The notes beneath the pieces are model-generated. The model did not search any database. It was not told where the DNA came from and saw only the letters and a list, made by a program, of their open reading frames with translations. From assembly GCA_043810695.1 (NCBI GenBank), contig JBDRNV010000008.1:1-47971 (forward strand): DNA of 47,971 nucleotides, in the 5' to 3' direction. Below, in pieces: positions 3,268 to 33,600 of the stretch. The translations under genes and the position numbers were made by a program. Position 1 is the first letter of the stretch. The number at the start of each line of letters is the position of its first letter. This DNA comes from Nanobdellota archaeon. GTDB taxonomy: Archaea > Nanobdellota > Nanobdellia > Pacearchaeales > GW2011-AR1.

Positions 3268-3351
3268 AAATAATAATATAAATTCAATGTTTAAAATCTT
3301 TTACTTTTAATACATAACAACCTTTAAAAACAAACTTTTACATTTTATAAA

Positions 3352-3708
3352 ATGCCTAAAAAATTTTCAGTTAAAAAAGAAAAAAAGCCTGAAAAAATTA
3401 AGCTTTCGCAGGAAGAATTTGAGAAAAAAGTTCTGGAACTTGCTGAAAAGGGAGTAACAAGCGAGAAAATTGGAGAAGAACTAAGAAAACAAGGCATTCA
3501 TTCTAAAGAATATAATAAAAAAATATCAAAAATACTCAAGGAAAAAAATAAGTATACTCCCCCTGAATTAAAAAATATAAAAGACAAACTAGAAAAAATA
3601 AGAAAACATTATGAAAAAAACAAACAGGATAAAAAAGCCATGAGGGAGATAGAAAGAATATTTTCAGCATTAAGAAAGATTAAAAAATACCATAAAATAA
3701 AAAATTAG
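3352..3708 (+). CDS. rps15: 30S ribosomal protein S15 (uS15/S13e), short form
   Basis: VLELAEKGVTSEKIGEELR and HYEKNKQDKKA match archaeal S15; usual position upstream of a DHH gene. Confidence 0.8.
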   Translation: MPKKFSVKKEKKPEKIKLSQEEFEKKVLELAEKGVTSEKIGEELRKQGIHSKEYNKKISKILKEKNKYTPPELKNIKDKLEKIRKHYEKNKQDKKAMREIERIFSALRKIKKYHKIKN

Positions 3709-9353: not shown

Positions 9354-10949
9354 TTACTTCTTATTCTTCATCACAAACCAGATTATCAAACCTGCAATAA
9401 CAGCAATAACTATTACAATCCACAACCATGTTAAATTTCCTCCTGCACCAGCACCTTCTTCTCCTTGATCACCAGTATCTACTCCTCCTGCACTAGCTGC
9501 AAGTTTTTCTGCAATTGCAAAATAACTAAATGAAGTTACTTCAACATCATAATAGTAATGGGTATTGTCTTCTGATGCAAAGGTTGTTGTAAGCTCATTC
9601 CACTTATTACCAGTTTCATCGAATTTAGAAACAACAATCTTTTCTTTAGCTAAATTATTTGTAGTTGCCCATGTCTTTTCAACTCTGAATTGAACAGTTG
9701 CCTTACTTAATTTGTCAGCTAAGTTTGTAGCGTCTATCTGAACATACTGATAAACTTTTCCTGATTTTGAAATAGAAACATCTGCTGGTTTTCCATCATA
9801 TTTCGTAACACTTACTTTAACATTTTGTGCAGCGTTATTAACTTCAATCTGTATTTGCTTTATACCAACGTCTGCATTAAAGTCTTTAACAATAGATGCT
9901 ACTCCAGGAGTCATCTGAGCGAATGAATGAACTTTTGAAGGTTGAGGTGTTGAACCAGTTGTAGATGGCAAGCCACTACCACAACTATTAGTAGAATATG
10001 TTCCTGTTGCATCACCGGCATGTCCATTACTATCCACACATGTTACAACATAAGTATAAGATGTTCCACAATTTAAACTAGATTCTGTTAAACTAGTAGT
10101 TCCTGAAACAGTTGCTCCTGATCTATCAACAGTACATGAAGCAACCCCTGTTCCAGCATCTGTTGCAGTAATTGCTAATGTTATTGAATCTTTAGCTATA
10201 GTTGTTGCAGTTAAGTCTACTACAGGAGCATTACTATCTGTAAATACAACATAAGTAATTAGTTGCCCCCAAATTCCCACAGAGTTGTTTGCATATACTT
10301 TAATTGTATTATTTCCATCCGCCATGCTCTTCAAAGATAAATTAGTAGTGTTACATGTTGCAAGAGTGGCACTTATAACTGTTAAATCAAGTGTTTGATT
10401 TGTTCCATTAACATTAACTTTACAAGCAGATGTTGTAGCCACGTTAATATCAACAAGAGTAATATTTATTGTAACATTAGTGTTATTCTGTATTGTTCCA
10501 TTAACATACCAAGGTAATGTTATTGTTGGGGCGCTATTATCAACAACTACTGTTGCACTTGTATCTGTTGTATTTCCATCAGATACTGTTGTGTTTCCAC
10601 GAGCAACTATCACCCAAAAGGTTAACGTTGCATTATCAGGTGTTCCAGCCGAATTCCAAGTAGTATTAAATCCAATATCAGTAACATTTTCTACAAAAGA
10701 TGCAATTGAAACATTTGTTCCATTTACATATGAATACAAAAACCATGCCCTTGTTAAGTTTAATGCTCCCCCATCATTTGAATCAAGAGTTGCATTAAGA
10801 ACATATGCTGTCCCCGAAATATTAGCACTTGCAACTGGTATATTTAATGTAACAGCACCAGCAGCACTCACTAAACTCATTGACAAGAAAATTATTCCGA
10901 ATAAAACAAGAATTCCCGTTAATAAAAATTTATTTTGCCTCATTTTCAA
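9354..10949 (-). CDS. Cell-surface glycoprotein with PGF-pre-PGF domain and C-terminal TM anchor
   Basis: Signal peptide, Thr/Asn-rich Ig-like region with many N-x-S/T sites, VYQYVQI...FRVEKTW...SFSYFAI, terminal TM helix plus KNKK. Confidence 0.8.
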   Translation of the reverse strand: MKMRQNKFLLTGILVLFGIIFLSMSLVSAAGAVTLNIPVASANISGTAYVLNATLDSNDGGALNLTRAWFLYSYVNGTNVSIASFVENVTDIGFNTTWNSAGTPDNATLTFWVIVARGNTTVSDGNTTDTSATVVVDNSAPTITLPWYVNGTIQNNTNVTINITLVDINVATTSACKVNVNGTNQTLDLTVISATLATCNTTNLSLKSMADGNNTIKVYANNSVGIWGQLITYVVFTDSNAPVVDLTATTIAKDSITLAITATDAGTGVASCTVDRSGATVSGTTSLTESSLNCGTSYTYVVTCVDSNGHAGDATGTYSTNSCGSGLPSTTGSTPQPSKVHSFAQMTPGVASIVKDFNADVGIKQIQIEVNNAAQNVKVSVTKYDGKPADVSISKSGKVYQYVQIDATNLADKLSKATVQFRVEKTWATTNNLAKEKIVVSKFDETGNKWNELTTTFASEDNTHYYYDVEVTSFSYFAIAEKLAASAGGVDTGDQGEEGAGAGGNLTWLWIVIVIAVIAGLIIWFVMKNKK

Positions 10950-11129
10950 CTCTTTTTCTTGTATATCTTAATTTCATAATATTTATAAATGTTTCTTTTA
11001 CAAATTTTTTTCCGTTTGACTAAATTTTATAAATCTTTTTTGGTTTTTTGAAATTCTTGACGACATATCAATTATTTTCTACGAAAAAATGGTTCGTGGA
11101 AAAATTAATATTTTTTAACAGCATATCTT

Positions 11130-11137
11130 TTTATATA
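11130..11137 (+). promoter_or_regulatory. Putative TATA box for the tRNA 5' piece at 11162
   Basis: TTTATATA 25-32 nt upstream of GCCCTCA. Confidence 0.5.
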
Positions 11138-11161
11138 CAATCTAGTTCAAAATACTAATAA

Positions 11162-11185
11162 GCCCTCATAGTTCAACGGATAGAA
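11162..11185 (+). tRNA. 5' fragment (acceptor 5' strand plus D-arm) of an interrupted tRNA, Arg-like
   Basis: GCCCTCA-TA-GTTC-AACGGATA-GAA; GCCCTCA pairs 7/7 (one G-U) with TGGGGGC at 12438-12444. Confidence 0.75.
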
Positions 11186-11188
11186 ATA

Positions 11189-11196
11189 TTTATATA
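11189..11196 (+). promoter_or_regulatory. Putative TATA box of the LAGLIDADG ORF, just inside the insertion
   Basis: TTTATATA 22-29 nt upstream of the ATG at 11218 (leaderless-type spacing). Confidence 0.5.
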
Positions 11197-11217
11197 GAGT
11201 TGTTTCTTTTAATATAA

Positions 11218-12348
11218 ATGCGAGTTTTATTGGAAAAAGAATCTCGAAGAGAACTATTCAATTATTTAATGAAACAAAATAAAGTTTTCAACTTAATAGA
11301 ATTAGCAAAAAAAATGAATATTCCTTACAAAACAATAAACAGTTGGCGTTACAACTACAAAAAATATCTTCCTAATAATATTTTAAATGATTTTATAAAA
11401 AATTTAAAGATTTTGGATAAACAGCCAGATAACTGGGGGCAAATCAGGGGAGGAAAGATAGGAGGAAAGGAAAGTTCTAAACGGCTAAAAGAATTTTGGG
11501 GGAAAGAGAAATATCAAAAAATAAAGAAAGAGATTGGCAGAAAGGCAATTAAAAAACTTCAAAAGAAATATGGAATAGTTAAATTATCTCAAATGGCAAT
11601 TAATGGGAGATTAAAAAAGAGGAAAAAAAGAATTAGAGAATTAGAAGAAAAAAATAAAGAATTTTTTAGGGAACAGAAAATATTTTTGAATACAAAAGGC
11701 ATAAAATTTAGCAGGTATGATAAGATGAAGAACATCAAGTTGCCTTTTGAAATGTCATCTGAATTAGCAGAAGAAATAGGGATTCATCTTGGAGACGGAT
11801 GTCTTTCTTTTAATAGAAAATATTTTTCAGTTAAAACAAATAAAAAAGAAGAAAATTATATGATAAATTTTCTGTTTCCTTTATATAAAAAACTGTATAA
11901 TCTAGATTTAAAGTTAATGAAATTACCAAGCGTAGTTGGTTTCGAGATTTGCTCACAAACATTATTTGATTTTAAAAACAAAGTTTTAGGGATACCTTAT
12001 GGAAATAAGGTTGAGAAAATTGAAGTTCCTAAAGTAATAACAGAATCACAAAACAAAGAAATATACCGGGCTTTTATCAGGGGTTTATTTGATACTGATG
12101 GGTGTGTTAACATAATAAAATCAAAAAAGAATTATCCGGTAATAACCTTTACAATAAAATCTAAGAAGCTTATATCACAAACAAAAGAAATGTTGATAAG
12201 GTTAGGATTTATTCCTTATGCAGGAAAATGGAGAATAGACATAAATGGGAAATTTATGTTAAATAAATGGCTTGAAGAAATAGGTTCAAATAATCCAAAA
12301 AATCTTGTTAGATTAAAACAGGCGAGTGGTTCAACCAGGATAGAATAG
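11218..12348 (+). CDS. Free-standing two-motif LAGLIDADG homing endonuclease with N-terminal HTH-like region
   Basis: LAEEIGIHLGDG and FIRGLFDTDG motifs; LAKKMNIPYKTINSW HTH; no intein splicing motifs; last 29 nt overlap the tRNA-Arg(GCG). Confidence 0.88.
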   Translation: MRVLLEKESRRELFNYLMKQNKVFNLIELAKKMNIPYKTINSWRYNYKKYLPNNILNDFIKNLKILDKQPDNWGQIRGGKIGGKESSKRLKEFWGKEKYQKIKKEIGRKAIKKLQKKYGIVKLSQMAINGRLKKRKKRIRELEEKNKEFFREQKIFLNTKGIKFSRYDKMKNIKLPFEMSSELAEEIGIHLGDGCLSFNRKYFSVKTNKKEENYMINFLFPLYKKLYNLDLKLMKLPSVVGFEICSQTLFDFKNKVLGIPYGNKVEKIEVPKVITESQNKEIYRAFIRGLFDTDGCVNIIKSKKNYPVITFTIKSKKLISQTKEMLIRLGFIPYAGKWRIDINGKFMLNKWLEEIGSNNPKNLVRLKQASGSTRIE

Positions 12349-12393
12349 CTCCTTGCGGAGGAGTTGATCAGGGTTCAAATCCCTGCTCGCCTA
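12320..12393 (+). tRNA. tRNA-Arg(GCG), intact
   Basis: AGGCGAG/CTCGCCT acceptor, GTTC/GAAT D-stem, GCTCC-TTGCGGA-GGAGT anticodon arm, CAGGG-TTCAAAT-CCCTG T-arm. Confidence 0.92.
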
Positions 12394-12403
12394 TTCTCAA
12401 ATT

Positions 12404-12445
12404 TTCTAAGGGGTTAAGATCGAGGTTCGAATCCTCGTGGGGGCA
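12404..12445 (+). tRNA. 3' fragment (anticodon 3' strand, variable loop, T-arm, acceptor 3' strand) of the interrupted tRNA
   Basis: TTCTAAGGGGTTAAGAT-CGAGG-TTCGAAT-CCTCG-TGGGGGC-A; perfect T-arm; acceptor complementary to 11162-11168; left boundary uncertain. Confidence 0.75.
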
Positions 12446-12490
12446 TTGAATAGAATAGTTCGTGTCCCTAATTATAAAGATTTTAGTTTT

Positions 12491-12841
12491 TTACTCTAAA
12501 TCTTCCAAATCATTTTTTATTTTTTGAATTTGTTTTTTTAAAGTTGGAAGATCTTCTTTAATTACTTCCCATACTTTATCTAAGTCTACCCCAAAATATC
12601 CATGAACCATAACATCTCTAAATCCAGAAATATCTTTCCACTGAACTTCAGGATATTTTGTTATAAAATCTATTGGAAGATTTTTAACAGCCTCTCCAAT
12701 TATCTCTAATCTTCTTATTGCAGCATCAATAAGTAATTTATTTGATTTAAAATTTTTTTTAGTTATTTTTATTATTGATTTTTCAATTAAATTTATATTT
12801 TCAATAATATCTTTAACAAAAAATATATTTTCTCTTTTCAT
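12491..12841 (-). CDS. HEPN (HepT/DUF86) RNase toxin
   Basis: DAAIRRLEIIGEA and RDVMVHGY (Rx4HxY) motifs. Confidence 0.9.
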   Translation of the reverse strand: MKRENIFFVKDIIENINLIEKSIIKITKKNFKSNKLLIDAAIRRLEIIGEAVKNLPIDFITKYPEVQWKDISGFRDVMVHGYFGVDLDKVWEVIKEDLPTLKKQIQKIKNDLEDLE

Positions 12842-13311
12842 ATTATTCTAACCTCATCATCTAATATGTTCTTTTTAAGCTCTGGCCTAATCATTTTATA
12901 TTCAACCAAGTCTACTTTTTTTCTAAGAGCATCCTGCAACTCATTTTTGATATGAATAAAACCCAATAAACTCATTTTCTTATTAGAAATTTCAACAAGT
13001 ATATCCACATCACTATCTTCTTTCTGTTCTCCTTTGACATAACTCCCAAAAATTCCTGCCCTTTTTATTTTATTTTTCTTTAAAATTTCAATTATTTTAG
13101 ATTTTATATTTGACAAGTTCTTATTTTCTTCCTTGTTTTTGTGTTCACGCAAACTTTTATCTGCTATTTCTTCAGCCCTTTTTAAGTCAAACTTTTTTAA
13201 ATCTTTTCCAAGATAGATTCTTTTCTTCCTAAATTTTTTACCTTCCCTTGAATTTCTGACCCTATAATAGTACTTTCTTTTATTTTTTTCTTTAATTTCA
13301 GTATATGTCAT
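12838..13311 (-). CDS. Minimal nucleotidyltransferase (MNT/MntA) antitoxin with basic N-terminal extension
   Basis: FGSYVKGEQKEDSDVD (GSx10DxD), KVDLV; ATGA overlap with the HEPN gene. Confidence 0.9.
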   Translation of the reverse strand: MTYTEIKEKNKRKYYYRVRNSREGKKFRKKRIYLGKDLKKFDLKRAEEIADKSLREHKNKEENKNLSNIKSKIIEILKKNKIKRAGIFGSYVKGEQKEDSDVDILVEISNKKMSLLGFIHIKNELQDALRKKVDLVEYKMIRPELKKNILDDEVRII

Positions 13312-28368: not shown

Positions 28369-30576
28369 TCAAACAAGATTTCCAAGTACAATGCTTACAA
28401 GAACGAAAAGGGCAAGTGTTGCTAAAAGAGCTGTTATAAAATAAAGCGTTATGCCTGCTATAGAATTTTTTCCAGTCAGATTTGTTTTCTGAAGTTTGTC
28501 TTCACCAGAGTCTATAACAACAAGTGTTTTTGTTAAAATAAAAATCATCTGAACAAGATAAACTCCAATTATTATTTGCAGGAAGTAAGGAGGAATCATT
28601 GTTGTAACATCAAAAATATCTAATATCTGGGAAAGATTTCCAAGAGCTGCAGCTCCGCCCTCGCCAATCTCAGATATTTTCAATTTTGTAAGTATTTCTG
28701 TAATCATTGCAGCTAAACCAACAACAACTCCTGAAAGAAGAGGAGCTAAAAAAGACATATTGCTTTTCATATCAGAGATTATTTCAGCAAGCATATCTCT
28801 AAGCCTTAATGTAATTTGCTGTATATTCTTAACATATTCTGAAATGCTCATCATGCTTAAAGCTGCAATTTTTAATCCTTTTTTAGAAGACTCTATAAGA
28901 ATTTTCATGCTTATTGAGATTAATTCAGAAGGATAATATAGAATTGCACCTGCTTTACGATCAAAAATAGCTTTCTCAACACTCATACCCATTTGTCTTA
29001 TGTTATAATTAACTCTATTGAAAAAATTCTCTGTTTTGAGTCCTTTTGAAGATTCTGCAATTTTTCCAAAAACAAGTTCTGGCGGAACCCCATTCCCTAT
29101 TCTATTTCCAACTTGGAATAAAGAACTATTAAATTCTGATTCAAGCTGTTTTGTGTTTTCTCTTTCAATAATTAATTCTTTTGTTCTTGCTTTGAAAGCT
29201 GTTGAAAAAAATATCGCAATTCCTAGCGGAATAAACATGCTTAAAATTAATGCACCAGAACCAAAAGGCCCTGTTACTCCTGTTGCTGTCTCAACAAATC
29301 CAAAAACTTTTCCGTCTCCGAAAAATCCCAAACCCAACTCTGAAAAAGAATAATCTTTCTGCAAACCAATCATTTCAGGCATTGGAGTGTATTGAAAAAT
29401 AAATGGCAAAAAACCAAGTATCAAAAAAGGCAGTATAAGCAGAAATGCTGTAAAATAAGGTGTCTTGCTTTTATATTTATAATAAAGCGGGTTTCTTTCA
29501 AGCAAAGAACTGTCACCATAACCTCCTGGCCTTAAGAAGGTAATTTTGTCTGTAAGATAAAAAACAAAAAATGGAATGATAAGATTAAATAGAATAAACA
29601 CATGAATCCAGGTAAGCAAACCTCCAAGCATTGCAGATGCAAGAGGAAGTAAAGCAAGTCCAAGTGTTGGAAGAACAACCCCTAACATATAAACATTTGT
29701 CAAAGGACTTTTTACATTATGTGTGAATCTAAGCATTTTTTCGTAAACTCCGTCAAGAACGACTTTTAGTGATTTTTCAAGCGTATTAATTCTTCTTGCT
29801 TCATCAGGTTCATACAAGCTGCTTTCAATAAGATGAAATGCCTCAATAAATTCTATTGAATAATCTCTCCAGGTTTCAAGATAATTATCAAGACTTTCTT
29901 TTATTGTAGAGAATTTACCCATCTGAACATTATAAAAAACTTTTTTAAAATCAAGGGCAAGAGGAAATTGAAGATGTTCAGAAGCAAAAGCAATAGCTCT
30001 TTCAAAATTAGGAGTATGCCGCATGTAAATAACAATATACAAGATAGCAGGAACCATCTGACTTGAAGCTTTTAAACGCCATTTGTTTGCTAGCCTGGCA
30101 GGATATGCTTTCATGAAATAAAAAACAAAAAAAGAAAAAATCATCATAAGAAAGAAAAATAAAAATTGAAAAGAATTAATATCTCCTTTAATAAGTACAA
30201 TTGCTACAGAAATAAGAAGCCCGATAAAAAGAACACTTACAAAAGACATAACACTTAATGTTAATGGCTGCCAGGGTTCAAGATCAAGGTGAGAAATTTC
30301 AATATTTCTTCTAACAGCCGAGGTGTCTTTTTCAGCTAATTTAAGTTTTATAACACTTCCAAAACTCTTGCACCATTTTTCATATCGTGATGTTTCAGGT
30401 GCCATTTCTTCCTTAAATTTAAGATATTCTTGGCTGTAATTAACATCTTTTATCCCAGCAGTTTCTATCTTGGATTCTATTCTGCTCCCATATTTTCTAA
30501 AGATTTCATCAATGTCTCTCGATGTTGCTGGCATTTTCTCTTTTTTATATTTCTTAATCTTAAAAGAAAATAGCAA
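28369..30576 (-). CDS. Type IV pilus/T2SS-F family membrane platform protein (fused TadB/TadC-like); start probably 30534
   Basis: Two hydrophobic halves each preceded by a cytoplasmic domain; lies between the pilin genes and the secretion ATPase. Confidence 0.75.
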   Translation of the reverse strand: MLFSFKIKKYKKEKMPATSRDIDEIFRKYGSRIESKIETAGIKDVNYSQEYLKFKEEMAPETSRYEKWCKSFGSVIKLKLAEKDTSAVRRNIEISHLDLEPWQPLTLSVMSFVSVLFIGLLISVAIVLIKGDINSFQFLFFFLMMIFSFFVFYFMKAYPARLANKWRLKASSQMVPAILYIVIYMRHTPNFERAIAFASEHLQFPLALDFKKVFYNVQMGKFSTIKESLDNYLETWRDYSIEFIEAFHLIESSLYEPDEARRINTLEKSLKVVLDGVYEKMLRFTHNVKSPLTNVYMLGVVLPTLGLALLPLASAMLGGLLTWIHVFILFNLIIPFFVFYLTDKITFLRPGGYGDSSLLERNPLYYKYKSKTPYFTAFLLILPFLILGFLPFIFQYTPMPEMIGLQKDYSFSELGLGFFGDGKVFGFVETATGVTGPFGSGALILSMFIPLGIAIFFSTAFKARTKELIIERENTKQLESEFNSSLFQVGNRIGNGVPPELVFGKIAESSKGLKTENFFNRVNYNIRQMGMSVEKAIFDRKAGAILYYPSELISISMKILIESSKKGLKIAALSMMSISEYVKNIQQITLRLRDMLAEIISDMKSNMSFLAPLLSGVVVGLAAMITEILTKLKISEIGEGGAAALGNLSQILDIFDVTTMIPPYFLQIIIGVYLVQMIFILTKTLVVIDSGEDKLQKTNLTGKNSIAGITLYFITALLATLALFVLVSIVLGNLV

Positions 30577-30639
30577 AGATTATTAATAAATGTAACTTTT
30601 ATAAAAATAAAATCATAATTTCATCTAAAGTTCTATAGG

Positions 30640-33600
30640 TTAGACGCACATTCCATATGTATTGCAGATTTTTCCTGCACTACACTTATCATTATCTGCA
30701 TGATATCCTCTTCCATCAACATTACATACAGAACATTCTGAGTTTGGTCTTAATGTGTTTGGAGTACATGGTAGACAATAACCTCTTGTATATATATTAG
30801 ATATACCACACACAGTATTACTACATAAACTATTATTAGCATATCTGACAAAACCATCCAAACATATTAAACAATTAGTGCCTAATATCAAGCCTGTTCC
30901 AGTACATCCGCCAGGAGTTGGTAAACTTGTATCAAAGAATTTAACTCCTGAAACAGGATCTCTCATATTATTTGGTGGATTTTTATTATCTATAGCAATA
31001 GCATAATATTCATGATATTCACCAATATCTTTTACAAAAAAGTTAAATATGCAAATAGGATTATTATTACAGGTAATAACAGGTGTATTCATATCATCAT
31101 AAAATATCTGAATTGTTTTAATTCCATATGGAGAATAAACAGCAGCACTTATTGTAGACTCTGCATTTACCCAAATCGTTTGAACCGGACCGTGAGAGAC
31201 AAATAACGAAGTGAAATCTGTATTAGTTGTAGTATCAACACAAGTTCCTAATGGATTACAATATTTGCCTGTTCCACATTTTGAATGGTCATAATAATCA
31301 TAAGCTGATTCATCTGTATTGCAAAATAAACAAATTGAACCTGGTTTAAGGGTGTTAGCAACACATAATTGAACATGTTGTACAGTAAAGCTTTTTGTTT
31401 CTGATGTATTTGAAATACCATAAAAATCAAAAGCTTTTGCGTAATATGTATGTGGCCCGTTTGGATAAGTTCTAGCATCAGTCGTGCAATTACATAAATT
31501 AGATTTACAAACATTACAATAATAATCAGAAAGATCACATTCTTTAATCTTATTACCATCAAAATAAATTTCTACTCTATCTATTCCAGAGTTTCCTGTG
31601 TTTACATCACTTGCTGTAGCTGTAATTGTAATAAGTTGTGTTTGATTTGGATTGCTTGGACTATGAGATACAGAGATTGTTGGGGCTGTAAAATCAGTAC
31701 GATTATATATAACATTTATTTTAGCAGTTGTTGAATTTAAACCAGATGTATCAATTGCTATTACTTCTATTGTATTATTTCCGAAAATAAATGGGTATGA
31801 TCCTGTTGCTGTACCCCATGACGCATTAGTTCCAGATTGAGTTAAATAAGCAGAAAACCATTTTTGATTATTTACCCTTAATATAACATCACTAATTCCT
31901 AAATTATCAAAAGCATTACCTCTAATAGATACCCAATCATAAAGAGATATCTGCCAATTTGTTGGTGAACTAATTGCTATTGTTGGAGGAATTGTATCTT
32001 TTGTATCTGTTACTACAAATCTTTTTGTTCCTACACTAGGGTCAACACCCATATTATTATAATTATCTAAAGCAGTTGCATAATATTCATAGGTTCCTAA
32101 GGCAAAAGTCTTTGTATAAACACAAGGACTGCTTGTACATGTTTTAACATTTACATTATCAACATAAATCTGTATTTGTTTTATTCCATTTGCATCATTT
32201 GCATTTGCTGTTATTGTAACAGGTTGTGTTTGATTTGGATTGCTTGGACTATGAGATACAGAAACAGTTGGATCTATTTCATCGATTGATCTTACAGTAA
32301 AGTCCTTTAATTTAACATCAGGAACTGTCTTAGTATTATTTGCACCATCAACAGCAATTGCATAATAAGTATGGGTACCTCTTAAATAAATTTTAGGCAT
32401 TGTTGCACAGATACATGCACCTGAAGTGCATACTGGATTAAATGTACAACTTCCAGCTAAGATATAATCAACATAAATTTTTATTTCTTTTATTCCAGAA
32501 TCACCTAATCCAACATCGCTTGCACTAGCTGTTATTGTAACACTATCTGTTGTTAATGGATTTGTTGGAGAATGGCTTGCAGAAATATTTGGAGAAATCG
32601 TATCTAGCTCTGCTACACTAAATGTTTTTGTTGTTGTGGTTGCATTATTATTTGCACCATCAATAGCACTTACATAATAATAATGTGTTCCAATGTAATA
32701 ATCATTAGCAGGAGTTGCACAAGTGCATGAACTTGAAGTGCATATTGTACTAAATGTACATGTTCTAGATAAAGTTCCGTCGACATAAACTCGTATTTCT
32801 TTTATTCCAGAATTTCCAGTGTTCACATCGCTTGCATTTGCTGTAATTACAACAGGTTGTTCAATTTTGGGATTAGTTGGAGAATGACTAACAGAAACAG
32901 TTGGAACGATTGTATCTGGTCCTGCTACCCCTATAGTTATTGTTCTTGTTTCTGTTGATGCGCTTCTAGTGTCGTCGTTTGTATTTACAGAATATATGTG
33001 TGTGCCATTTGCGATTGATTGTTCGTTTATTTCAAATAAATAAGTGTTAATGCTTGTCTTACGTAGATTTCCATAATAATGTTGTTTTATTTCTTCTGCC
33101 GTTAAGCTTCTATTCCATATTCTTAGCTCATCAACTGTACCATTTAGAACTCCTGGTGCTCCACAGCATTGTTGTGAACCAATTTCTAATGGGATAGTTG
33201 TTCTAGGTAATGTGCCATACACAGAATTAATTGTTTCTGTCTGTTGTACACCATTAATATACAATTTCATTGTCGATCCGTCATATGTTGAAGCCACATG
33301 ATACCATTGATTATTATCTGCAATTGTATTGGAGTATATTGTTCCACCTATATTGTTTCCTGTAGCGTTCCCTAACTGCATGGCTATGGATCCGCTGCTT
33401 GTCACTCCTGTTCTCCATCCTCTACTATATCCATCTAATCCTACAATGATAGCTGTAGATGATGGATTATTATTTTTCTTAAACCAATATTCTACAGTAT
33501 AAGTTTTCATTCCTTGCAATGCTGATCTTTCATAAACATTTAGGCTCATTGGTTTACCTGTAAATCCTATACCTCCACCATATACACCTGTTGTTAGTAT

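Follow-up and report, generated by a model that had tools for sequence, protein, structure and literature searches.

A LAGLIDADG endonuclease gene with its own tRNA-Arg(GCG) between the relics of a native tRNA-Arg(GCG) gene in a Nanobdellota archaeon

How does a complete tRNA gene come to lie, together with an endonuclease gene, inside a second tRNA gene of the same kind, and does the outer gene still work? This question is raised by a locus on contig JBDRNV010000008.1 of a Nanobdellota archaeon (assembly GCA_043810695.1), of which we analysed positions 1 to 47,971 of the forward strand, a stretch that is called the window in the following. In a preliminary description, made from the letters alone, a LAGLIDADG endonuclease gene and an intact tRNA-Arg(GCG) were noticed between two pieces of a split tRNA. 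All parts listed there, i.e. the 5' piece, the 3' piece to 12445, the TATA boxes, the two-motif frame of 376 amino acids and the tRNA-Arg(GCG), could be located as noted. Our preferred answer, to which we assign a probability of roughly 0.82, is that a mobile cassette consisting of a free-standing LAGLIDADG gene and a tRNA-Arg(GCG) entered the native tRNA-Arg(GCG) gene between its nucleotides 24 and 25 and destroyed it, with relics of the native gene remaining on both sides and the carried tRNA taking over. The window's own assembly (G000; G and L numbers denote the other genomes and loci compared) comprises 670 kb in 24 contigs, has 30% G+C and is 80% complete. Close public relatives carry the label Woesearchaeota or Nanoarchaeota. 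The locus consists of the following features:

11130..11137, plus strand: TATA-like box of the native tRNA-Arg(GCG) gene, about 28 nucleotides (nt) before nucleotide 1 of the relic, read from the sequence
11162..11185, plus strand: 5' relic, native tRNA-Arg(GCG) nucleotides 1-24, with the acceptor 5' strand and the D arm
11186..12397, plus strand: inserted cassette of 1212 bp, borders set by aligning both flanks, colinear and without gaps, to uninterrupted native genes
11189..11196, plus strand: the cassette's own TATA-like box, centre about 25 nt before the ATG
11218..12348, plus strand: LAGLIDADG endonuclease gene, 376 amino acids, stop codon inside the inner tRNA
12320..12393, plus strand: carried tRNA-Arg(GCG) with a foreign acceptor stem (ARAGORN; Rfam tRNA)
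12398..12411, plus strand: scrambled part of the 3' relic, native 25-38, anticodon stem 5' strand and loop, colinear with native genes
12412..12445, plus strand: preserved part of the 3' relic, native 39-72, with the anticodon stem 3' strand, variable loop, T arm, acceptor 3' strand and discriminator

The outer pieces had been regarded as one gene split by about 1.2 kb, and the comparison with related genomes bears this out. Uninterrupted native tRNA-Arg(GCG) genes were found in 8 of 42 genomes of the genus by a D-arm pattern search with the matches read, and in these relatives both outer pieces belong to one tRNA gene. The window pieces align to the native genes without gaps, 11162-11185 with positions 1-24 and 12398-12445 with positions 25-72; hence, no outer nucleotides are missing and the insert spans 11186-12397. 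The outer acceptor strands are paired at 7 of 7 positions, including one G-U pair. Moreover, an nhmmer profile made of 14 uninterrupted native genes and run over both strands of the 48-kb window returned 11162-11185 as profile positions 1-24 (E 1.3e-4) and 12412-12445 as positions 39-72 (E 1.2e-7), and the 5' relic matches the native genes of G020 and G021 at 23 of 24 positions. The outer gene is the host genus's own native tRNA-Arg(GCG), the same isoacceptor as the carried tRNA. The alignment and the profile leave no room for the earlier idea that TTCTAA at 12404-12409 is a remnant of an Arg(TCT) loop.

Empty and filled forms of the target site can be compared directly. A surface-protein-like gene at 9354-10949, for which no Pfam family was found, adjoins the intact native tRNA gene in G019 and G020 in the same divergent orientation (2 of 8 native loci tested), and it also adjoins the filled locus of G017. 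Since the neighbouring gene is the same, G019 and G020 on the one hand and the window and G017 on the other represent the empty and the filled form of one chromosomal site. The target site is empty in 8 genomes of the window's genus and in 7 genomes of the genus of G376; it is filled in G000, G017, G376 and L051. Among the filled sites, the nested layout comes with an endonuclease of 70% amino acid identity in G017 (same genus), of 65% in G376 (another genus of the family) and of 54% in L051 (a Woesearchaeota bin). The 5' relic of G376 is identical to the native gene of G417 at 25 of 25 positions, the extra D-loop base included, and the T loop and discriminator of its relics are also those of the G417 gene. 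The tRNA carried in G376 is identical to the one carried in the window at 68 of 74 positions. Hence, the relics track the host genus and the carried tRNA tracks the element.

The outer tRNA is a relic and not a spliced gene, because its anticodon arm has been scrambled in the window and lost from G017 and L051. The 5' strand of its anticodon stem, reported as not found in the preliminary description, is in place: the 3' piece already starts at 12398, and the arm is present in a scrambled form from which the native GCG anticodon is gone. In this part (native 25-38), 9 of 14 positions differ from the G019 gene according to a manual count on the alignment, and in native 39-72 only 2 of 34 do so. 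In G017 and L051, the whole outer anticodon arm and the T-stem 5' strand are deleted, and the outer acceptor of L051 pairs at only 4 of 7 positions. A smaller deletion is found in G376, where the outer anticodon arm is a shortened, partly deleted remnant. Of the three models that had been proposed at the outset, the syntenic empty sites, the host-specific relics, the element-specific carried tRNA and the decaying outer piece thus support the one of a homing element that disables a tRNA-Arg gene and brings a replacement.

The inner tRNA at 12320-12393 scores 59.6 bits with the Rfam tRNA model, well above the gathering score of 29, and is called tRNA-Arg(GCG) by ARAGORN; its start overlaps the end of the endonuclease open reading frame (ORF) by 29 nt. 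Across four cassettes, 24 cloverleaf pairs are kept, 6 of them by compensatory double changes, and none is broken. An inventory of the Arg isoacceptors, which the preliminary description had suggested, revealed the inner tRNA as the sole GCG tRNA in the ARAGORN list for G000, with genes for Arg(TCT), Arg(CCT) and Arg(TCG) present elsewhere in the assembly. The native profile likewise found no other native-type tRNA-Arg(GCG) across the whole G000 assembly with its 80% completeness. The codons CGT and CGC together account for 291 of the 5411 Arg codons counted in 356 long ORFs, and their use means that a GCG tRNA is needed. Taken from its sequence, the carried tRNA appears to be a working gene. 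With regard to its detection in other genomes, a pattern of the carried tRNA with variable gaps found the G376 copy, and a fixed spacing missed that of G017 due to a 1-nt difference in the D loop; a 9-mer anticodon-loop pattern for GCG tRNAs gave match counts in G017 and G376 close to those of the reversed-pattern control.

Two further observations concern the carried tRNA. The endonuclease of the window is closest to that of G017 (70% versus 65% for G376), whereas the carried tRNA, which resembles that of G376 as mentioned above, is far less like that of G017. This discord of the modules hints that cassettes have swapped parts or that G017 has changed fast. Furthermore, the AT-rich segment 12290-12319, which encodes the highly conserved C-terminal motif GSNNPKN, ends about 25 nt before the inner tRNA and could double as its TATA-like promoter, which bears on the question whether the tRNA depends on the promoter of the endonuclease gene.

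The endonuclease of 376 amino acids matches Pfam LAGLIDADG_3 (E 2.8e-12). It consists of an N-terminal helical part of about 165 amino acids, in which all hints of a helix-turn-helix remained below threshold, and a core with two motifs. Both LAGLIDADG motifs could be aligned in five cassette proteins, and among 40 homologues both motifs as well as D193 and D294 are invariant. An AlphaFold2 model reached a mean predicted local distance difference test score (pLDDT) of 92. A Foldseek search with this model retrieved, as matches over its C-terminal 200 residues, I-Tsp061I (E 8.6e-8), I-DmoI (about 7e-6) and intein endonucleases (4.6e-11), with template modelling scores (TM-scores) of 0.66-0.68 against I-DmoI and I-Tsp061I when normalised by target length; thus, the predicted structure has the pseudo-dimeric alpha-beta-beta-alpha-beta-beta-alpha fold of single-chain LAGLIDADG enzymes. 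The ratio of nonsynonymous to synonymous substitution rates (dN/dS) relative to G017 is 0.23 at dS 0.77, which indicates purifying selection on the endonuclease gene. The gene is free-standing: it has its own start, and it is associated neither with an extein nor with an intron family in Rfam nor with a conserved bulge-helix-bulge motif. In five relatives (L099, L103, L108, L109 and L111), the endonuclease frame spans the whole carried tRNA, which starts 76-77 nt before the stop codon. Because the frame runs through the tRNA, the C-terminal tail of these proteins is whatever the tRNA encodes. In viral contigs, 79 relatives were found, the best of them 32% identical (48% over one short segment) and matching only the endonuclease core. 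Since these matches are weak and confined to the core, there is no sign of a viral carrier.

In mechanistic terms, we picture the following course. The insertion of the cassette after nucleotide 24 destroyed the host's native tRNA-Arg(GCG) gene and left its two parts as flanking relics, and the carried tRNA would take over the decoding of CGU and CGC. The endonuclease would cut the uninterrupted native gene near 24/25, repair from a cassette-bearing copy would spread the element, i.e. homing, and the carried tRNA would escape cutting through its differing sequence. Regarding expression, the stretch upstream of the 5' relic including the box at 11130-11137 is conserved in G017, and this box probably served as promoter of the native gene. 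For the cassette, the box at 11189-11196 is a putative promoter of its own, and its spacing of about 25 nt to the ATG is that expected of a leaderless mRNA; in 11 relatives a TATA-like box directly follows the relic, as read by eye at the junctions among 15 loci displayed. Transcription from this box may yield a leaderless mRNA with the tRNA at its 3' end. With the tRNA on the endonuclease transcript, the host could neither silence nor lose the element without losing its only tRNA-Arg(GCG).

The association of endonuclease and tRNA recurs among DPANN archaea. Two surveys were made, which overlap in at least four places. The first one covered 41 genomes and started from 55 endonuclease rows; we dropped 13 intein-like rows, which lie in open frames of 794-1207 amino acids, as well as one row that repeated an ORF already listed, leaving 41 loci. 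At 25 of these loci a tRNA on the same strand starts between -130 and +60 nt from the ORF stop; a tRNA-Thr(CGT) lies 44-49 nt upstream of the ORF at 3 loci (a fourth, at 62 nt, is counted among the 25); an adjacent tRNA is on the opposite strand at 5 loci; and no tRNA was found at 8 loci, one of them at a contig end. Given 36 tRNAs in 670 kb, we estimate that chance would produce well under one locus of the same-strand type. The second survey retrieved 462 relatives from a collection of species-representative genomes, and the figures refer to the best 80 loci. According to ARAGORN, 53 of these have a same-strand tRNA at the ORF 3' end, 5 have one on the opposite strand, 1 has one upstream only and 21 have none, so that the recurrent tRNA linkage of the endonuclease homologues, which had been suggested as a check, is indeed found. 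Among the 30 closest public loci, tRNA-Arg(GCG) is present at the ORF 3' end in 23, and in more distant clades among the best 80 the tRNA is Arg(CCT) at 9 loci and His(GTG) at 7. A profile scan of the 30 closest loci detected left relics in 8, all of which end at native position 24 or 25, and right relics in 12, with starts between positions 26 and 52; at least one relic is present in 13 loci, all of which belong to the 19 loci with at least 47% identity. Six further loci show, by eye, a more decayed left relic followed by a TATA-like box. The arrangement therefore appears to be common and widespread in DPANN archaea.

Several other loci have related layouts. The window's own genome contains a second nested case, in which tRNA-Val(GAC) is concerned (L013, 1140-2360; contig C23, about 30345-31565). 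Here the native tRNA-Val(GAC) promoter is directly followed by a LAGLIDADG frame of 356 amino acids, and then by a complete tRNA-Val(GAC) with a foreign acceptor and the 3' part of the native gene, which sets in at about position 26; of its 5' part nothing is left, and the downstream flank is syntenic with the intact native tRNA-Val loci of relatives. On the same L013 stretch, the intact tRNA-Thr(TGT) gene (3451-3522) is immediately preceded, at 3331-3450, by two extra tRNA-Thr(TGT) 5' fragments in tandem, alike in their acceptor and in the start of the D arm. A reverse order occurs in G027 (L057, 527-1700), namely the outer tRNA-Thr 5' piece, a complete tRNA-Thr(CGT), a TATA-like box, the LAGLIDADG ORF and the 3' piece, with the outer acceptor paired at 7 of 7 positions; its reverse-order Thr relatives L011 and L063 have only an orphan 3' piece. 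In G037, which belongs to another family of the order, a full-length endonuclease relative is nested in the native tRNA-Arg(CCT) (L061, 939-2115). The 5' piece again stops at position 24, with a TATA-like box behind it, and a separate tRNA-Arg(CCT) is part of the cassette. At L143, too, an Arg(CCT) gene has left a 5' and a 3' relic that match each other. At L083 and L090 (G080 and G420), an orphan tRNA 3' fragment with T arm and acceptor comes no more than about 60 nt after a tRNA-Arg(TCG); in G420, this fragment matches the native Arg(GCG) 3' end. Next to the cassette of the window, 46 nt past the 3' relic, a toxin-antitoxin pair begins on the minus strand (12491-13311), consisting of a HepT-like ribonuclease (RNase; E 1.5e-29) and a MntA-type nucleotidyltransferase (E 2.8e-17). 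We considered it as part of the element and rejected this, because the pair was not found beside the G017 cassette or at the empty sites.

Several points weigh against the proposed cassette or limit its reach. The relic pieces are far better preserved than neutral decay would give: those of G000 and G017 differ at about 4 of 46 positions (manual count), while pS, the proportion of synonymous differences, amounts to 0.48 for the ORF. Relics so much better preserved than the synonymous sites of the ORF need either repeated recent homing or selection on the relics themselves; repeated entry into fresh native genes fits the low divergence. G000 and G017 also have upstream flank sequence in common and may have descended from one insertion event, and 17 of the 30 closest loci are without a relic at the thresholds used. 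No alignment column near 24/25 separates all carried from all native tRNAs, so that no immunity determinant or target site can be named. Since the assembly is incomplete, the carried tRNA is the only copy in the sense that no other was found rather than that its absence is proven. In G376 (L054, about 350-1525), the endonuclease gene has a stop after six codons, with the frame resuming at residue 71, and its first motif reads LGNG instead of LGDG, an exchange of N for D; hence, not every copy of the endonuclease is active, and this one looks like a decaying copy. Finally, homing, cleavage and the cut site are what we infer from sequence comparison. An alternative leaves the insertion as described and has the outer pieces maintained by selection for a function in the cassette: the TATA box plus the final 8 nt of the 5' piece would form a promoter, and the paired acceptor and T-arm ends a tRNA-like handle for processing by RNase P or tRNase Z, or a terminator. 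This is compatible with the cassette explanation, and beyond the low divergence of the relic ends it could account for the persistence of the left-relic end motif followed by a TATA-like box despite decay (by eye at L101, L106, L109, L111, L113 and L115) and for the intact acceptor complementarity in 7 of 8 loci with both relics (manual count). Nevertheless, we regard it as unlikely: G017 and L051 no longer have the T-stem 5' strand, the L051 acceptor is poorly paired, the right relics begin anywhere between profile positions 26 and 52, which looks like erosion, and the loci without a detectable relic retain ORF and tRNA all the same.

If the 1.2-kb insert were a giant bulge-helix-bulge intron with the endonuclease gene and a tRNA inside, the outer tRNA would be spliced and used, as considered in the preliminary description, which had noticed that the insert ends can pair. 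This helix corresponds to a relaxed candidate at 11187/12400 with a central helix of AGAA and TTCT, and ARAGORN called a tRNA with the anticodon CTA on 173 of 4875 artificial single-intron splice variants. However, the candidate is one of 27 that pass among 2250 AT-rich candidate splice-site pairs in a relaxed scan, its 3' strand is absent in G017, and no conserved bulge-helix-bulge motif was found among these pairs. The 4875 variants gave 1873 calls in total, 979 of them for the inner tRNA, and the CTA tRNA, the only recurrent outer call, was rejected due to its poor stem, the would-be anticodon stem having two Watson-Crick pairs, two G-U pairs and one mismatch. With 9 of 14 nucleotides of native 25-38 changed and the GCG anticodon lost, the joined exons give no canonical tRNA, and the arm is lacking in G017 and L051 and shortened in G376. 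Neither did an Rfam scan by E-value over 10900-12700 return an intron family; it found nothing but the inner tRNA, a mascRNA-like match of 20.5 bits lying below threshold. All this makes a spliced outer tRNA highly improbable. A scheme of double splicing, in which the outer pieces borrow the anticodon arm of the inner tRNA, had also been proposed, and GGATAGAA, which the outer and inner D arms have in common at the left breakpoint, speaks for it. The identity holds in the window and is not conserved in G017; hence, it is no recombination scar and goes back to the general likeness of D arms among Arg tRNAs. Because the inner tRNA is, moreover, a complete and covarying cloverleaf by itself and no structure for two further splice sites is present, the scheme deserves next to no credence. 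Slightly better than the giant intron, and still very improbable, is a local duplication, i.e. tandem tRNA-Arg(GCG) paralogues that arose in place and received the endonuclease gene between or within them later. The common flanks of G000 and G017 could stem from a single event, but from genus to genus the type of the carried tRNA goes with the endonuclease and that of the relics with the host, relatives whose native gene is intact lack a second tRNA of the GCG type at the locus, and all 8 of the 8 left relics that were profiled have one and the same left junction. An assembly chimera had to be thought of, since the source is a metagenome bin and, among the contigs compared, no single public contig extends across the whole 1.8 kb; parts of the stretch lack contig cover in the runs compared, which we take as no argument either way. 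Against it, Logan contigs from two other studies bridge the left junction (X3, 10900-11327) and the right junction (X4, 12063-12465) with zero differences, and the layout recurs in independent assemblies, so that an artefact is hardly conceivable.

If the insertion of a tRNA-carrying cassette is accepted for the window, the surveys invite a bolder view, which we consider tentative and would sooner doubt than endorse: the cassettes might belong to a class of tRNA-swapping homing elements of DPANN archaea that is large and has so far gone undescribed, with one tRNA identity per endonuclease clade (Arg-GCG, Arg-CCT, His-GTG, Val-GAC, Thr-CGT). The element would kill the native gene and make the host dependent on the carried tRNA; as this tRNA would be co-transcribed with the endonuclease, the element could not be lost or silenced, and over time tRNA genes might be replaced wholesale by foreign versions. 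Scattered promoter-bearing 5' halves and orphan 3' halves could be the source for the split tRNA genes of nanoarchaea. Independently of this view, if the cassettes do home as proposed, Woesearchaeota-like archaea would possess many tRNA genes that came in from outside as replacements and are linked to a selfish gene, the tRNA halves and odd tRNA calls seen in their genomes could be traced to a definite origin, nested tRNA relics would have to be reckoned with in genome annotation, and a natural set of endonucleases aimed at tRNA genes would be at hand.

How does the cassette relate to known systems? In the literature, consulted mainly as open-access main texts without supplementary tables, we did not come across any endonuclease-plus-tRNA cassette described for archaeal tRNA genes. 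Homing endonucleases usually spare their host by residing in introns or inteins that splice out. Here, the harm to the host is offset by a spare copy of the disrupted gene rather than by splicing. To our knowledge, an element that brings a spare copy of the gene it breaks is otherwise known only for protein genes in fungal mitochondria. As far as the portion of the source used here describes them, these mobile ORFs (mORFs) insert into atp6, atp9, cox2 and nad3, bring a foreign C-terminal part and leave the native part; the cases named are atp6, atp9, cox2 and nad3 of Glomus and, as cited there, atp6 of Allomyces macrogynus (PMC3630166). The likeness is close, since that source likewise describes a free-standing LAGLIDADG or GIY-YIG gene in an essential gene together with a diverged replacement part, and a displaced native part, nearly identical to that of close relatives, which remains as a relic, downstream in mORFs (PMC3630166). 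However, the target here is an RNA gene on an archaeal chromosome, a whole gene is carried, relics remain on both sides, and the ORF runs into the carried tRNA, whereas an in-frame fusion to a protein gene is the mORF type. The likeness is one of function and does not demonstrate common descent.

With I-DmoI and I-Tsp061I, the enzyme of the window has the single-chain two-motif fold in common, judged from the predicted structure. In contrast to the present cassette, these two reside in spliced rRNA introns and leave the host gene whole; here, there is no intron, a spare gene offsets the harm and the protein has an extra N-terminal part of about 165 amino acids. Archaeal group I introns with LAGLIDADG ORFs also occur in DPANN archaea including Woesearchaeota, and those listed in the part of the source considered are in rRNA genes (PMC6125680). 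The free-standing enzymes resemble the phage endonuclease SegB in being neither intron- nor intein-borne and in lying beside tRNA genes. SegB is a GIY-YIG phage enzyme with a tRNA gene cluster as target region, which is not known to split a tRNA gene or to supply a substitute for one. Unlike in that case, the enzyme here is of the LAGLIDADG type, the tRNA gene is split and a substitute tRNA is supplied. SegB is an example of the intronless homing of free-standing endonucleases in T4-like phages, which, according to the sections of the sources relied on here, are thought to spread by cutting the allele lacking them, with co-conversion of the flanks (PMC13096335, PMC2988022).

A last comparison concerns the tRNA pieces themselves, which resemble nanoarchaeal split tRNAs in their separate 5' and 3' parts, their complementary acceptors and the related archaeal group. 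In Nanoarchaeota and Thermoproteales, the pieces of split and intron-containing tRNA genes are joined into working tRNAs. In contrast, the anticodon arm of the outer gene described here is ruined and, in orthologues, lost. The cassette offers a testable route by which split tRNA genes may have come about.

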